DNA of 64,000 nucleotides from Octopus vulgaris (lineage: Eukaryota): contig OX597824.1 of assembly GCA_951406725.2 (NCBI GenBank), forward strand, positions 27,714,001-27,778,000. The letters are read 5' to 3'. The notes beneath the pieces were generated by a model. The model did no database searches and was not told where the DNA came from. It worked only from the letters and a program-made list of their open reading frames with translations. Each line of letters begins with the position of its first letter. The first letter of the stretch is position 1. A program made the position numbers and the translations under genes. Below are positions 4,948 through 56,902 of the stretch, one piece after another.

Positions 4948-5720
4948 AAGAACTGGCAGAATCGTTAGCGCGGCGGGCGAAATGCTTAGCGGTATTTCGC
5001 CTGTCGTTACGTCCTGAGTTCAAATTCCGCCGAGGTCGACTTTGCCTTTCATCCTTTCGGAGTCGATAAATAAAGTACTAGTTTCGCACAAGGGTTGATG
5101 TAATCGATATCATCCCTTTGTCTGCCCTTGTTTGTCACCTCTATGTTTAGCTCCTTGTGGGTAGTAAAGAAATATATATATATTCTTTCCGCCGAGGTTG
5201 ACTTTGCCTTTTATCCTTTCGGGGTCGATTAAGCAAGTACCAGTTATGCACTGGGGTCGAAAGAATCGACTTAATCCGTTTGTCTGTCCTTGTTTGTCTT
5301 CTCTGTCTTTAGCCCCTTGTGGGTAGTAAGAAATAGGTATTTCGTCTGTCTTTACGTTCTGAGTTCAAATTCCACCGAGGTCGATTTTGCCTTTCATCCT
5401 TTTGGGGTCGATTAAATAAGTACCAGTTACGTACTGGGGTCGATGCAATGGACTTAATCCCTTTGTTCTTGTTTGTTCCCTCTATGCTTAGCTCCCTGTG
5501 GGTAATAAAGAAATAAATAAAGAACACAGGTGACGAGCTGGCACGCCGGGAAAAAAGGCCTGTCGTTATTTCGTGTTTTTACGTTCTGAGTTCGAATTCC
5601 GCCGAGATCGACTTTGCCTTTCATCCTTTCGGGGTCGATAAATCAAGTACCAGTTGCGTACTGGGGTCGGATAATCGACTGGCACCCTCCCCCCAAATTT
5701 CGGGCCTTGTTCCAGCAATT
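4948..5720 (+). mobile_element. SINE family A multimer (three internal units plus a terminal unit)
   Basis: Repeated units ending gccccttgtgggtagtaaagaaata; last unit ends ccctccccccaaatttcgggccttg. Confidence 0.85.
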
Positions 5721-8959: not shown

Positions 8960-9970
8960 CCTACACTATGAACCATCCCTATATTATAAACAGCGTTCTT
9001 ACAGCATTACACTTTTACACTAAGCAAATACTCTAGAAATTATTTAAAAGTCTCCCACTCTCCAATTAAAATCCTCAGAATACATACCTATATACACAGA
9101 AAATGTATATGTTTATACAGACAAACTGAAAGGAACTTTTCCTTATCTTTTTAAAAAATCATATTATATATGTAAATAAATTATATTTTATTTTTGTTCC
9201 ATTTTTATACATGAATATACACGCACATACTATATTAGCCCCATTTTAGAAAATATGCAGTATAGAATTTGAGGAAACTTTGTAAACAAACACTAAACAA
9301 CCGCTGCTTCCACATAACAGGTAATTTAAACCCTTGTAAAATTAGTTATAAAGCAATGAACACCTCGAGAGAAACACATAAACAAACATTCATTCAAATA
9401 CTTTTGTCAAAAGCAAAGCAGAAGTGAAACGATCTTCTATACTAACAAACTCATGATGTGCCTGACTTAAAAACCCAAACCTTAGAAATGAAGATAAACC
9501 ATTCCCTAGATAAGAACAGCTACAAATAATGAGAGAAACAGCTTAAACTTAGCTCCTATCTACATTCGTCTGTGGCAAAAATGTTGACTCACCCAATTAC
9601 TAGAAATTGTCACCTTGACCTTCATATTGTCAATGCAAAAGGGATTAAATCCAATAACACCAAAAGCAACAGAAATGCTGTCACACTTTGTACCGACCAA
9701 ACAAATGAGAAACATCGACAGGCTTGGTTACAAAGTTCTATATGCATCAATGAGTTGTGAACAATAACCTAACACCAAATTTAATCAATAAGAACTTAGC
9801 ATAACACCTGAACATGAAATACGTAATTGCCACGCAACTGAACCTCACAGGCACGAAAACGATTTTTAACTGAACGGAGGATATATAACAGCAAGATTAA
9901 CTCTTATGCATCGCAGCCTGACGATGGCTTGGCTGGCCGAAACTTCGAAGTCACTGTCAAGAACATTCTT
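8960..9970 (+). mobile_element. Highly decayed 3' part of a Penelope-like element (GIY-YIG region plus terminal repeat)
   Basis: Remnant motifs SRNYLKVSHS (~9030), SYKA, KLSSYLH, NNTKSNR..TLCT, HRHENDF, followed by a hammerhead at 9913-9957 and (TA)n. Confidence 0.6.
9913..9957 (+). ncRNA. Minimal type-I hammerhead ribozyme (PLE type)
   Basis: gcagc CTGACGA t ggc-ttggctg-gcc GAA ACTTCGAAGT C actgt: intact core, 10-nt palindromic stem III, GUC cleavage triplet; one mismatch at base of stem I. Confidence 0.75.
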
Positions 9971-9971
9971 G

Positions 9972-10012
<41 letters not shown>

Positions 10013-10519: not shown

Positions 10520-11664
10520 TTTTCTTTCCGTAAGACAAGTAACAAAACAGTTTGATCGGTCTCTTATTGTGAGTTTTCTCTTGTAAATCAATTTTTGTGA
10601 ACCCATGGATAGATAAAAAATTTTGTGTTATGAAAATGAGTTTTTTCATGGAACAAATGCATCCCGGACAGCTCCAAACATCAATGAGGTGTTTGGTAAT
10701 GATGTGGCGAATGGGCGCACTGTACACCAATAGTTTGAGGAGTTCAGGTCTAGTGACTTTACCCTTGAAAATCAACCGTGTGGCAGACCAGAGACCAAGG
10801 TGGAAACTGATGTGCTGGAAAGTGTAGTGGAAGCGGATACATCTCAAATAACGCGTGAGTTAACAGCAAGGTTTGGTGTTTCCATTTCAACGGTATTAGA
10901 ACATCTGAAACAAATTGGCAAGGTAAAGAAGCTAGCCAAGTGGATGTCATACGAACCGAACGTGCATCAAATGACACGTCGTCTTCAAACTTGACGTTCT
11001 TTGCTGTCACAGCATAAAAGCGAACCATTTTCGCATCGTAATGTTAGGTGCGATAAAAAATGGATTCTTTTCAACAATAGCAAGCGATCTGCACGGTGAT
11101 TGGATAGAGACTAAGGGCCAAAACACAATCCCAAAAAGAATATTCACCAAAAATTTAATGGTATCTGTTTGGTGGTCCAGTGCTGGTGTCATTCGCTACA
11201 ACTTCATGAGACCTGGTAAATCAGCTATAGCAGATGTATGCATCAACCAATTTGATGAAATGATGAGTGAACGTGAAATTAAACAACCGAGATTGGTCAA
11301 GAAAGACGGGCCAATTCTCTTGGAAGACAATGCTCGACCAGATGTTGCACAAAAAAACATTACTCAAAGAACAGAACATGGAAATACTCTGTTTTCCACC
11401 ATATTCACCAGATCTTGCACCAACTGACTACCACGTTTTCCAGGCATTACTCTTTTTTACTCTTTTTACTTGTTTCAGTCATTTGGCTGCGGCCATGCTG
11501 GAGCACCGCCTTTAGTCGAGCAACTCGACCCCGGGACTTATTCTTTTTGTAAGCCCAGTACTTATTCTATCGGTCTATTTTTGCCGAACCGCTAAGTGAC
11601 GGGGACGTAAACACACCAGCATCGGTTGTCAAGCAATGCTAGGGGAACAAACACAGAAACACAA

Positions 11665-12649: not shown

Positions 12650-13135
12650 CTAAAAGTTTGGGCCATAGTCAACCTCGGCGGAATTTCAAGTCAGAACGTA
12701 GCGCCAGACGAAATACCTATTTCTTTACTATCCACAAGGGGTTAAACACAGAGAGGAGAAACAAGGACAGACAAACGGATTAAGTCCATTATATCGAACC
12801 CAGTGCATAACTGGTACTTATTTAATCGACCCCGAAAGGATAAAAGGCAATGTCGACCTCGGCGGAATTTGAACTCAGAACGTAAAGACAGACGAAATAC
12901 TTATTTCTTTACTTCCCACAAGGGGCTAAACACAGAGAGGACAAACAAGGATAGACAAACGGATTAAGTCCATTATCTCGACCCCAGTGCGTAACTGGTA
13001 CTTATTTAATCGACCCCGAAAGTATGAAAGGCAAAGTCGCCTTCGGCGGTATTTGAACTGAGACCGTAACGGCAGACGAAATACTACAAAGCATTTCGCC
13101 CGGAGCGCTAACGTTTCTGCCAGGTTGCCGCCTTA
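12650..13135 (-). mobile_element. SINE family A multimer
   Basis: Two complete ~180 bp units plus a partial third; head ggcggcaacctggcagaaacgttagcg at the right end; flanked by (TAA)n. Confidence 0.85.
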
Positions 13136-15512: not shown

Positions 15513-16125
15513 GCGGCGAGCTGGCAGAAACGTTAGCACGCCGGGCGAATTGCTTAATGGGATATCGTCTGCCGCTACGTTCTCAGTTCAAATTCCGCCG
15601 AGGTCCACTTTGCCTTTATCCTTCCGAGTTCGATTAAATAAGTACCAGTTACGCACTGGGGTCGATGTAATCGACTTAATCCGTTTGTCTGTCCTTGTTT
15701 GTCCTCTATGTGTTTAGCCCCTTGTGGGTAGTAAAGAAATAAGGATATTGTCTGCTGTTGCATTCTGAGTTCAAATTCTGCTGAGGTCGACTTTGCTTTC
15801 ATCCTTTCGGGGTCGATAAATTAAGTACCAGTTACGCACTGGGGTCGATGTAATCGACTTAACCCGTTTGTCTGTCCTTGTTTGTCCCCTGTATGTTTAG
15901 CCCCTTGTGGGCAATAAAGAAATAAGAAACGCTAGCACGCAGGGAGAAATGTTTATCAGTATTTCGCCTGTCTTTACGTCCCGAATTCAAATTCCGTCTA
16001 GGTCGACTTTGCCCTTCATCCTTTTGGGGTCGATAAATTAAGTACCAGTTGCGTACCGGGGTCGGTCTAATCGACTAGCCCCCTCCCCTAAAATTTCGGG
16101 CCTTTTGCCTAGAGTAGAAAAGAAT
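15513..16125 (+). mobile_element. SINE family A trimer, well preserved
   Basis: Head gcggcgagctggcagaaacgttagcacgccgggcga; two internal units; terminal unit ending ccctcccctaaaatttcgggccttttgcctagagtagaaaagaat. Confidence 0.9.
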
Positions 16126-40666: not shown

Positions 40667-41599
40667 ATGGTCAGGCGATCCATTTGCTGTCAACACCCGT
40701 TAAAAGGAGGGCTGGGCATGCCGTGGTTGATGATGCGCAGACACGCGCTGAGACTGCGACATCTCTGGCTCTATGTAGACGACGGTGAACAGGTGTGGTC
40801 GCCGTTTGTGAGGCACGCTTTCCCGCAGCTCGTCTCCATGACCGAACTGCAGTCGTGGATCAAAAAGAGGCCGAAGAAGGGCGAATGGCACCGCGAGTGT
40901 CGCTTTGCTCTCAAGCAACTCTGCCGTCCTGGGTCGACCTTGAGTGACTTCAACACAACCAAAGCATTCTATAGGGGTTTAGTGGAGGGGAGGTACGACG
41001 ACGAGCTCGGGGCGAACCTGGACGTCGACGAGGAGTACCTGACCCGCCTGTTCAGGACGACTTTCGGGCCAGGGCCCATGGACAACTTCCAGAGATCCCT
41101 GGCCTGGCAGTGCTACCGAGAAGCGCTACCCGTTCGGGATAAGCTCTACAGACACGGCTCGAGAAACACGGGGCCGACCTGCCCGAGATGCGGTCAGAGC
41201 GACGAAACCGTTCTGCACGCACTCGTGCAGTGTCCAACAATTTCCGACCTGTGGGCTTATGTCGAACAACTGCTGTCACGTGTGGGACGAGTCGGTTTAT
41301 CAGCTGAGTCTATCGTCAATATTGGCACGCCTCCCTCCTTCAAACGGGAAGGAAGAGCTATTTTCATCATCCTTGTGGCTATGGCGAAAGAATGTATCTG
41401 GTGGACGCGTCTGAAAGGATTGGAGACAAACACTTTCCTCGCTGGTCAATCTCTCATCAACTTCTTCAAGTACCACTTGAAAAGGAAAGTGAGAGTAGAG
41501 AGGCAAGTTTTGTCTAGCGAATGTTTTAAAAAAAGATGGGTGAATGTAGCAAGAATGGCACGTATGAATGACGAAGCCACCTTGAGCATGATCCTATGA
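40667..41599 (+). CDS. C-terminal ~310 aa of a Tx1/L1-like ORF2 (post-RT region, zf-RVT and CCHC knuckle), 5'-truncated
   Basis: PLKGGLGMP, LAWQCYREALPVRDKL, CPRCGQSDETVLHALVQC, AKECIWWTR; no internal stop; the first ~60 codons of the listed ORF are microsatellite. Confidence 0.85.
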   Translation: MVRRSICCQHPLKGGLGMPWLMMRRHALRLRHLWLYVDDGEQVWSPFVRHAFPQLVSMTELQSWIKKRPKKGEWHRECRFALKQLCRPGSTLSDFNTTKAFYRGLVEGRYDDELGANLDVDEEYLTRLFRTTFGPGPMDNFQRSLAWQCYREALPVRDKLYRHGSRNTGPTCPRCGQSDETVLHALVQCPTISDLWAYVEQLLSRVGRVGLSAESIVNIGTPPSFKREGRAIFIILVAMAKECIWWTRLKGLETNTFLAGQSLINFFKYHLKRKVRVERQVLSSECFKKRWVNVARMARMNDEATLSMIL

Positions 41600-44770: not shown

Positions 44771-45520
44771 GATATTCCGAAACTTAAGTAACAGCTCGTA
44801 TTTAAATGAAAGCGACGTCGAGCGAAGTGCAAAATATTCACTGATGGCATCATAATTGAAATTGATATGATCATTAGAAAAACTAGTACTACTACTACTA
44901 CTACTGCTGCTGCTTCTGCAGCTGCTGCTGCTGCTGCATAATGAACATGGCATAAGCGTAACATATGTTGTGTCATAGGCTTTTTCAAAGACTGGATCTG
45001 CCTATCCATCTCCAGTTCTGAGTACAGCCAACATTTTATGCCGGTAAGTTATGAAATAGATGTACAAACATTTTCAGTACGTAGCTCAAACCATACGTAT
45101 ATACATACTAATGCACATGAATACATATACGTATCAATAAATGCATCTCTCTCTCTCTTTCTCTCTCTCCCTCTCTCTGTGTCCCTCTCTCTCTGTCCCT
45201 CTCTCTCTCTCCTTGTCTTCGTATACATTCGCTGCTTTCTTCCAAGGAATCTAATGCTCTTAGCTTCGTTTTTCCTAGGGGCTGGCCAGATTTTAGCAAT
45301 CTCGAGTATAATCAACCGGAATTGCGAAGATAATCTGGTACTCGACTGAGGAAAGAAAACTCCGAATGACCCGTCCTTATTTCCTTTGTATCGTTTAACT
45401 GGATGTTTTGTTGTCCCATTTTGTATTTTTATACATACATACTTACACACACACACACACATACACGCACACACACACGTCACTGGAAAAAGGATACATG
45501 TACTTGCATTGGGACCCCTT

Positions 45521-45778
45521 CACCCGCTGATGACGGGTAAATATTCAGAAACCCGGGTCCGTGCGTATCACGTCAGGTCGACGATAGGAAGAATGGCTTC
45601 CTTTTGCAAATACCGATAGGACACAGAAAGTGTGTCAATAGCCAGCTAGAGAAGATGTTCTCCTGGGGCTACAACCTACAGTAGCATCCACCCTTAGTGG
45701 TTAGCCACATTTAGATGGCAAATATCCTCCACATTGCCGTGCAGCTACTGTTTATACCTCGTTCAGAGATTTATTATA
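45521..45778 (+). mobile_element. ~255 bp non-coding hammerhead-bearing element, copy 1
   Basis: Homologous along its length to the reverse complement of 56491-56745; hammerhead at 45521-45565 (CTGATGA c gggt-aaat-attc a GAA ACCCGGGT C cgtg). Confidence 0.85.
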
Positions 45779-46471
45779 TATGTATATATATAGTATTAAT
45801 TGATAGTAGGAGATGGATTTCGTACTAGATTCTTTTTAGGTACAACATATGTTTCGATCCATTAGTCTGGGTCACTTCAGTTAAGTTGATAAAGAAGTCT
45901 CACTCAAAATTTTTACTGTCGGTTGTTATATGCTCATCAAGCTCGGCAAAAACTGTGTCAGTACTCTACTCAAAATTGAAACACGCTAATCGAATTATAC
46001 GTATTTCTCCAGATTATTTATTATATATATATGTATATGCTAACACACATGTATACATATACATAGCAATGAATGTAAATGTATGTGTTCCTCTCTCCCT
46101 ATATATATATATACACAGACATATATACATATGTATGTTTTCTCGTATAGATTTACCTTTAACACTCTCTTCTATTTCATTATTCAAAAATATTTCTCTT
46201 CCCTCTCAAAAACTGTTTCATACATCTATACAGTCACTCATTCTTTTAGGAAACAATGCAAATCTATGTTTTAAAATTCTCTACGCGTAGACTTAATTCA
46301 CATTATGGAAAATGTTCACCACCATACCACCACATAAAATCACGCACATACTGATATATACACCAAACAAACACACATATACACACGCACACCCGAAGCA
46401 CTTTCGTGCGTTCATTGATTTTGTAATTGGCTTCTATTTCGTGGTACTCTTGTTGTTGTTATCAATATCAT

Positions 46472-55500: not shown

Positions 55501-56490
55501 GACGTCGTTATTTACCCTCTGCAACTTGAGCGAGAATACTCGAAAATGCAAGCTAAATCACAACTAAATCCCGTAGGCCACCTTTAAATTTTTGTGAAAA
55601 TCACATTTTCCTTTTTCCATGGAACGTTATTGAAGTTTCTGCCTCCGTAAATATCTGAAAAATTAAAATATTTAAAATTTATTTTCATGAAGTGTTCCAA
55701 TTGTATGAGAAAAATAAGTCTTGGCAGAAATCCTTTTTTATTGGACAATTTCCTGTATTTGTTGCTATTTATTGTTACGTTTTTGTACTTCCCAATATAT
55801 TCTGTTATTTAGCGATATTTTCCGTTGTATTATCGATGTGTTCCTCCATCCCTTGTAAATGTGACTATTTTGCTACTTGATTTTTACCCAGCACCAATTG
55901 ATATGAAGCCCTTCATTGCCATTCATCTTCCTTTCAATCTGTTTTTGAGCCTCTCTGTATGCATTTACATATAACTCCTGTACTACCGTCTATTTACTGC
56001 CTCGTTGCTTACACATGTGACTGTACATGTCATTTAATTTTGGAAGTCTGTAGGAAATAAATGAATTTGCCGGAATGATCACCCGACTCTCTCCCATCCA
56101 GACCTTCACTCTCAAAGAAGTACATGCCAGAAAATTATGTTCGAGACATACAAATATAGGTTGGTCATAGCTTAGAACACATTTGACCACGATTTGCTTG
56201 AGGTTAAACAAGTGACACCGTGTATTGTCTTTAGATATAGACAACGTGAGAGGAAATGCATGCTATTGAAACTATTAATTCTTAATCGATTTCGTCGTAA
56301 AATACTTAATGTTTTATTAAAACGTTTATTATAAATAAATTAGCTTGTCAACTGCAATGTTATTTTAATTAAGAAATTATTTTAATTAAGAAAACAATTC
56401 AAATTGCATTAGACTTTCTCAGTGGACATAGGACTATACTTGCCGGAGTTGTAATAAGAACATGATTTTGTCAATATATATATATAATCA

Positions 56491-56741
56491 ATAATAAATC
56501 TCTGAGAGAGGTATAAACAGTAGCTACACGACATCGTGAAGTATATCTGTCATTTAAATGTGGCTAGCCCGTAAGGGTAGATACTACTGTAGCTTGTAGC
56601 CCCAGGAGGACACCTCCTCCAGCTGGCTATTGACACACTTTCTGTGACCTATCAGTATTTGCAAAGGGAAGCCATCTTTCTCGTCTTTAACCTATGATAG
56701 ACACGGACTCGAGTTTCTGGGTATTGACCCGTCATCAGCGT

Positions 56742-56745
<4 letters not shown>
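56491..56745 (-). mobile_element. ~255 bp non-coding hammerhead-bearing element, copy 2
   Basis: Reverse complement aligns with 45521-45778; TA-rich repeats on both sides. Confidence 0.85.
56701..56743 (-). ncRNA. Intact minimal type-I hammerhead ribozyme
   Basis: acacg CTGATGA c gggt-caat-accc a GAA ACTCGAGT C cgtgt: perfect stem I, canonical core, palindromic stem III, GUC triplet. Confidence 0.85.
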
Positions 56746-56788
<43 letters not shown>

Positions 56789-56804
56789 GTAAATATATAT
56801 GTAT

Positions 56805-56889
<85 letters not shown>

Positions 56890-56902
56890 TATATCCCCCA
56901 TG

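Follow-up and report, generated by a model that had tools for sequence, protein, structure and literature searches.

The Octopus vulgaris genome carries a family of non-coding tandem repeats with a type I hammerhead motif, and two copies lie in the window (the whole stretch of 64,000 nucleotides that was analysed). Very probably both are truncated and decayed, one belonging to subfamily A and the other to subfamily B of a 357 to 360 bp repeat, likely a non-LTR retrozyme copied by the enzymes of Penelope-like elements (PLEs). The retrozyme class, the palindromic dimer hammerheads and the PLE link are already in print, so the octopus family is a new example and not a new system. The interest lies in a lineage with switched palindromes and a living descendant, rather than in the window copies.

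Two copies of the repeat in the window

The copies and their junctions are located as follows.

45478..45776, + strand: copy 1, a 5'-truncated subfamily A unit (unit positions ~37-357)
45777..45793, + strand: (TA)n microsatellite, 3' junction of copy 1
56489..56745, - strand: copy 2, a subfamily B unit truncated at its 5' end, spanning stem I to the long 3' end
56746..56894, no strand assigned: (TA)n-rich microsatellite, 5' junction of copy 2

The original prediction described two clearly diverged copies on opposite strands, and this is borne out by the alignment (230 of 278 columns identical, 83%, E 7e-77). The shared terminus AGATTTATTA, adjoining (TA)n in both copies, was also confirmed from the sequence. 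No further copies of the element are present within the window. The (TA)n at the 3' junction of copy 1 is likely the insertion target, and copy 2 is flanked by (TA)n runs. Two other parts of the description had to be revised. The element was taken to be ~255 bp long, but the unit is 357 bp and other copies run upstream into the previous unit. Both copies were said to begin at the hammerhead, but copy 1 extends upstream to 45478 and the 5' ends of the family are scattered over the unit. The common apparent start is a coincidence, because copy 1 has lost ~22 nt immediately 5' of stem I. Copies elsewhere extend upstream through more conserved sequence before they reach the previous unit.

Copy 1 diverges by 6.3% from the subfamily A majority (19 of 300 positions) and copy 2 by 5.6% from the subfamily B majority (14 of 252). 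Each is ~6% from the majority of its own subfamily and 12% from that of the other. Both copies are single, with no tandem partner for dimer formation, and they fold no better than shuffled sequences (z -1.3 and +0.2).

The hammerhead motifs of the two copies have the following parts.

45521..45565, + strand: copy 1, type I hammerhead motif (sequence, pair table)
45521-45526/45560-45565, + strand: stem I, two of six pairs mismatched
45527-45533, + strand: core CTGATGA, with an extra C at 45534
45535-45538/45543-45546, + strand: stem II, with two G.U pairs
45547, + strand: extra A, then GAA at 45548-45550 (sequence)
45551..45558, + strand: palindromic stem/loop III ACCCGGGT, subfamily A marker
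after C 45559, + strand: predicted cut site (from the motif)
56700..56744, - strand: copy 2, type I hammerhead motif (sequence, pair table, Rfam RF00163)
56738-56732, - strand: core (from the motif)
stem I and stem II of copy 2, - strand: five of six pairs and four Watson-Crick pairs, respectively (pair table)
56714-56707, - strand: palindrome ACTCGAGT, predicted cut after C 56706

The predicted double substitution in stem III does keep the palindrome, which reads ACCCGGGT in copy 1 and ACTCGAGT in copy 2. Judged from the sequences, this change is a marker separating subfamilies A and B; its two variable sites are kept in 29 of 30 and 28 of 30 subfamily A copies. Stem II (GGGT:ATTC in copy 1, GGGT:ACCC in copy 2) still pairs through two G.U pairs as claimed, but the change is one-sided and not compensatory. 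The invariance claimed for CTGATGA, GAA and GTC is true between these two copies, but core position 7 varies across the family (T/C/A/G), and CTGA, present in both window copies, is replaced by CCGA in subfamily F. The hammerhead of copy 1 is predicted to be inactive. Rfam Hammerhead_1 scores copy 2 at 18.8 bits, a weak match below the gathering threshold of 34 (E 0.018); Rfam gave no match on copy 1 and no hammerhead on F. For the whole window, only microsatellite-driven miRNA matches were seen among the 150 of 227 Rfam matches listed.

Unit, subfamilies and age of the family

The genome searched is an assembly of 2.80 Gb in about 30 large contigs. Searches with copy 1 and copy 2 yielded 4316 and 3641 candidates at first look, and 40 were scored for each copy. 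The core pattern matched the genome 1006 times against 0 for the reversed control, and the F-type core pattern 1268 times against 6 for its control. Looking for tandem copies, as the original prediction proposed, revealed head-to-tail arrays elsewhere in the genome, with a unit of 357 bp in A and 360 bp in F. The unit has no coding capacity and no flanking LTRs.

The majorities of A and B, from which the intermediate copy L061 was omitted, are 92% identical. The core-pattern matches revealed the further subfamilies C1, C2, E and G, which have 5-8% internal divergence and are 70-95% identical to each other. Subfamily F, first met beside a PLE, is a diverged relative that is ~60% identical to A and has a GC content of 168/360. 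It forms arrays of at least 10 units of 360 bp at 99-100% identity on many contigs (L161-L220, for example L162:1139-2218), and by this identity F is very young. Among 87 units from 26 arrays, divergence is 0.36% within arrays and 0.89% between them; this is expected if a single template was copied round repeatedly, and local duplication fits too. Two sub-lineages of F are distinguished at core position 7. No convincing A>G excess was found as an imprint of ADAR in F (10 A>G and 5 T>C among 66 variants) or in the older subfamilies (A>G:T>C of 34:37 in A, 46:34 in B and 21:14 in C).

Insertion structure and Penelope-like elements

Across the insertions of the family, 5' ends are scattered and 3' ends are fixed. 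The tally was 94 simple and 51 inverted insertions, and partial tandems and inverted 5' arms occur among them. The arms of inverted insertions end at two fixed 3' points ~40-45 nt apart. One long and one short 3' end occur together in 11 of the 12 inverted insertions of F and in 19 of 39 older ones. The 168 3' junctions comprise 62 with TA-type microsatellite, 47 with the next unit and 59 with other sequence; location in microsatellites would hide target-site duplications. None of the 94 simple insertions has its 5' end at the cleavage site (unit position ~140), a count that is biased since the loci were chosen for holding a hammerhead.

These features match those of PLE insertions in section 6 of PMC8557442 (Craig et al. 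2021), which gives 5' truncation, partial tandems, an inverted 5' copy, a 30-40 bp tail at one end and (TA)n targets. The traits listed there belong to coding PLEs, whereas here it is a non-coding unit that is repeated and the tail is ~40-45 nt.

Two PLE families were compared with the repeat. The first was typed by the criterion given in PMC8557442 and is represented by the following locus.

L141:2137-4461 (G000:C3:5852500-5862400): Neptune/Nematis-type PLE; two shorter frames in other phases precede the 775-aa frame

The tandem unit of this element is 4.27 kb, and its 775-aa frame includes the reverse transcriptase, a CxxxxCxxC motif and GIY-YIG. The genome holds 1204 exact copies of the 24-mer of its minimal hammerhead variant, and the element is very young. 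It has (TA)n ends with an optional tail of ~30 nt (short in 2 of 8 copies examined), and its minimal hammerhead shares with F a C at position 4 and a U.U at the base of stem II. The second family (L221-L240, for example L142:1250-2290) is older, at ~6.6% divergence. Its 3' ends are of two kinds, ~50 nt apart and lying at (TA)n or (TAC)n, and it also carries a half motif of the form GAAA-palindrome-UC. The PLE with the same terminal repeat that the original prediction called for was not found in these two families, where matches did not exceed words of chance length, the best being 14 nt. Age and end structure alone make the Neptune-type element a candidate helper for F.

The window copies could instead be solo pLTR stubs of an unfound autonomous PLE, so that no independent non-coding lineage would exist. 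This reading accounts for the truncated 5' ends, the inversions, the tail and the junctions with (TA)n as PLE traits, but a complete unit is directly preceded by the next unit and not by coding sequence. Likewise, most PLE hammerheads are reported in PMC4209133 to occur as single truncated copies, but F makes pure 360-bp arrays on many contigs. The unit is not homologous to the 3' end of either PLE family, though only these two were covered by the comparison, and no same-strand upstream PLE frame appears among the frames listed for loci L001-L110. We therefore regard the stub explanation as unlikely.

Other repeats in the window and genome

Several unrelated repeats were recorded in the window.

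9908-9960, + strand: a third hammerhead motif, from an unrelated older repeat family, then (AT)n at 9974-10010
40700-41599, - strand: LINE frame, C-terminal part, with a zf-RVT domain (Pfam PF13966)
10975-11427, + strand: mariner-type transposase fragment (Pfam PF01359)
5025-5335, 12667-13085 and 15560-15926: related tandem units of 162-184 bp (probable SINE-like repeat, partial tandems)

The family of the third hammerhead motif gave 759 first-look candidates at 70-78% identity. It has a 10-nt palindromic stem III, several relatives carry CCGA at the start of the core, and it has no similarity to the 357-bp unit. No match to the Neptune-type protein was found in 12 loci of this family. A further older repeat, family D (L066, L080, L092-L096), has the same hammerhead layout as the 357-bp unit and an unrelated body. 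Here C and A flank stem II, the palindrome centre is ACGT or ATGT, and the period is ~326 bp in L096.

The hammerhead across subfamilies and the dimer palindrome

The type I motif, with its core, three stems and cleavage triplet, is found in all seven subfamily majorities and in every listed F unit. In order, the layout comprises stem I (6 bp), CUGANGA (CCGANGA in F), one unpaired C, stem II (4 bp, or 3 bp in F), one unpaired A, GAA, the 8-nt palindrome and UC; F has U and U in place of the unpaired C and A. At the centre of the palindrome A has CCGG, G has TCGG, C has TGCA and F has CATG, and B and E share TCGA. Stem III is nearly always self-complementary in sequence, as a dimer-type hammerhead would need. 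By hand count, 61 of the first 100 matches listed have Watson-Crick palindromes (TGCA 31, CCGG 15, TCGA 14, ACGT 1). The wobble centre TCGG occurs 152 times, and its reverse complement CCGA, the mismatch form, 17 times. Under neutral DNA mutation both forms should be equally frequent, but CCGA cannot pair; the excess comes mostly from one founder lineage.

The computed energy of stem III is +2.9 kcal/mol as a hairpin and -10.7 to -14.9 kcal/mol as a self-duplex of 8 bp between two units. Because the hairpin is unfavourable and the self-duplex stable, the double change would fall in a loop in the monomer and form a base pair only in the dimer. Such a loop-in-monomer, pair-in-dimer arrangement is reported for animal hammerheads in PMC4209133. 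Stem I changes on both sides between A and B, from G-C to A-U, and stem II has a both-sided change that sets C1 or F apart from the remaining subfamilies. Dimeric PLE hammerheads were reportedly described by Lunse and others in 2017.

These hammerheads may have low activity, since two unpaired nucleotides (C and A, or U and U in F) lie at the base of stem II and F carries a C at position 4. The U4C change is recorded in PMC3088659 as lowering activity in vitro, yet as sufficient in a viroid. When isolated, the hammerhead region of A, B and F (unit ~103-146) is predicted to form an inactive hairpin, with pairing between the core and the cleavage triplet. This hairpin lies 5-13 kcal/mol below the active monomer fold and could protect a circle from cutting itself.

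Covariation and the level of selection

The original prediction attributed the paired changes to selection on ribozyme structure in a non-autonomous family. In 39 hammerhead regions, 86.4% of the pair cells can pair, a value reached in 0 of 500 shuffles and compared with 9-54% in slid controls, and 9 of 14 pairs change on both sides. This test ignores relatedness, and it includes seven rows of family D, which raise the covariation counts. The circular folds of the A and B majorities have z scores of -7.4 and -6.7 and are about 62% paired; both strands fold better than shuffles to about the same extent.

With the fold predicted from A alone as reference, taken outside the core, broken pairs are fewer than under random placement in C1 (4 against 12.8), C2 (3 against 10.4), E (17 against 28.2), F (28 against 37.6, at an alignment identity of only ~60%) and marginally in B (4 against 7.6, p 0.045). 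In G they are not significantly fewer (p 0.15). Double changes exceed the null in five of these six comparisons. The B fold as reference gives significantly fewer broken pairs in five of six comparisons, the exception being B against A (p 0.21), and the F fold in none of six. None of these sets of comparisons is independent. In aggregate, pairing over the unit is conserved.

The covariation check across the family was borderline. In a tree-aware G-test of 115 copies, 0 of 107 proposed pairs reached E<0.05, the best values being 0.054 for loop III, 0.074 for stem I and 0.093 for stem II. Since the changes are carried by few independent lineages, no pair reaches significance by itself. Six proposed pairs are nevertheless among the top 100 column pairs against 0.17 expected, but ancestry dominates the signal, since 22 of the 25 top covarying column pairs are not proposed base pairs. 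The test is our own G-APC implementation with tree-based nulls. Copies in its alignment span unit positions 100-300 with at least 80% identity to a seed; duplicates were removed (360 to 153), and 10 of 48 F units were retained.

Among rare changes found in single copies, those giving G.U and A.C pairs are about equal (70:67, 75:67 and 26:34). Private mutations thus look neutral, and selection does not appear to act on the dispersed copies. In our reading, the targets of selection were a few source lineages and the fold of the unit as a whole, and the dispersed copies, both window copies among them, decay neutrally. The claim of selection on ribozyme structure is then apt for the source lineages and misplaced for the dispersed copies, and the signal spans the whole unit, not the ribozyme alone. 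The non-autonomous character of the family is upheld at the source-lineage level. The matching base changes of the two window copies were likely selected in ancestral source lineages.

It is improbable that duplication at the DNA level spread the family as a satellite-like DNA repeat, with the hammerhead as an inactive look-alike and the paired changes due to shared ancestry. Fixed 3' ends combined with variable 5' ends and with inversions at the 5' side indicate reverse transcription, even if the lower divergence within arrays suits local duplication. The loss of significance for every pair once the tree is accounted for speaks for shared ancestry; however, the palindrome survives at least four different centres. 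The strand-specific preference for TCGG over CCGA (152:17) and the deficit of broken pairs would be unexpected without RNA-level selection.

We read the window copies as probable fossils that are truncated, decayed and not themselves under selection. The opposite view, that they are selected in their own right, for example as host regulatory ribozymes, could appeal to the intact CTGATGA, GAA, GTC and perfect palindrome in both and to the 5/6 stem I pairs of copy 2, but it is highly improbable given that their ~6% divergence is like that of other copies, that a short core often survives this by chance, that copy 1 carries a deletion and its stem I is broken, that neither copy has a tandem partner, and that the private mutations of the family are symmetric.

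A model for the copying of the unit

Under the retrozyme reading, tandem arrays would give rise to transcripts that cleave themselves, using hammerheads predicted to act as dimers. As stem III is too weak in a monomer hairpin, neighbouring units would pair their 8-nt palindromes and release monomers, which would then be ligated into circles. A Penelope-like reverse transcriptase/endonuclease would copy the RNA into (TA)n sites. Reverse transcription primed at the nicked (TA)n would run round the circular template and produce arrays of more than one unit. Only source lineages with a working palindrome, working stems and a working unit fold would leave offspring. We propose that this is why paired changes distinguish the subfamilies, whereas decay of single copies is unconstrained.

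Mobilisation by an ordinary LINE (L1/Tx1, CR1 or RTE) in the manner of a SINE is highly improbable, for although 3' ends adjoin simple repeats and LINE remnants lie near some loci and within the window, multi-unit head-to-tail arrays and long and short 3' ends on inverted arms are known for PLEs (as described in PMC8557442), and an unsystematic look noticed no tRNA-like head or LINE-shared tail.

Contigs from four runs that are only guessed to be RNA match F, and two of them are 390 nt long (unit + 30). This length is equally expected from a circle, a multimer or tandem DNA, and the contigs carry no information on strand, level or joints. The word length of the assembly graph is presumably 31, in which case a closed loop yields unit + 30. 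Words of an A stretch occur in 20 of 24 listed runs, half or more of them in three; the runs have mixed organism labels, and these hits are not evidence.

We tentatively suggest a wider interpretation, which is possible though doubtful as a whole. The subfamilies may be the record of a viroid-like RNA lineage in which the palindrome was rewritten (CCGG, TCGG, TCGA, TGCA, CATG) through G.U intermediates while the fold of the ~360-nt circle was kept. The palindrome would serve as a partner code restricting cleavage to units of the same kind, and the monomer circle would lock its own ribozyme. The living subfamily F, with its U4C core, and the equally young Neptune-type element might then be a ready pair for showing that circular retrozyme RNA is trans-mobilised without shared terminal sequence.

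Relationship to known retrozymes

The copying route of retrozymes is still inferred from co-occurrence. The octopus lineage offers dated subfamilies with natural paired variants and clear PLE-type insertion footprints. Because near-identical young F units exist together with a young autonomous candidate, dimer specificity, circle formation and trans-mobilisation are directly testable. We found no description of an octopus retrozyme in the literature, where supplements and repeat libraries could hold one. No cephalopod family was seen in the sections of PMC7229834 consulted, and the giant squid genome paper (PMC6962438) reports 235 Hammerhead_1 matches as a count only.

Non-LTR retrozymes are described as head-to-tail repeats of ~150-450 bp, with target-site duplications of >4 bp when present. 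At the level of sequence, the octopus element has every testable feature of the metazoan representatives. Like those of Cervera and de la Pena (2020, PMC7229834), it consists of non-coding tandem units of a few hundred bp; the sizes given there are 350-390 in mussel and 330/350 in axolotl. It also has in common with the families of that report a type I hammerhead in each unit, whose stem III is short and whose tetraloop is palindromic, a GC content <50%, a strongly self-paired predicted circle and co-existing PLEs. The axolotl Amex2 form shown there is likewise mismatched at the base of stem II. Circles and cleavage were demonstrated for those retrozymes, whereas the octopus unit is known from sequence alone. 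Most metazoan circles in PMC7229834 leave the hammerhead free, whereas in A, B and F the hammerhead, taken in isolation, is predicted to be an inactive hairpin. Unlike the families as presented in that paper, the octopus unit has insertion footprints that point directly to PLE machinery.

The motif also differs from the canonical and minimal PLE pLTR hammerheads described by Cervera and De la Pena (2014, PMC4209133), a paper that notes compensatory variation in such hammerheads. It has canonical helices of 6, 4 and 2 bp and a second extra nucleotide before G12, and it lies in a non-coding unit and not in a pLTR.

A further parallel is with vertebrate retrozymes (Li, Clavereau, Pollet 2026, bioRxiv 10.64898/2026.07.22.740005), which also occur as dispersed monomers and tandem arrays and co-occur with Neptune-type PLEs, and for which dependence on PLE enzymes is proposed. 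The 35 species given in that preprint include four invertebrates, three insects and one anthozoan, hence no mollusc. One of nine predicted Xenopus retrozyme dimers is reported there to have cleaved. Of the 57 Xenopus families, 24 match known TEs, nearly all of them PLEs, at pLTRs, whereas the octopus family matches neither of the PLEs compared. The evidence set out in the preprint is co-occurrence and phylogeny, and not the insertion structure and subfamily covariation that are described for the octopus family.
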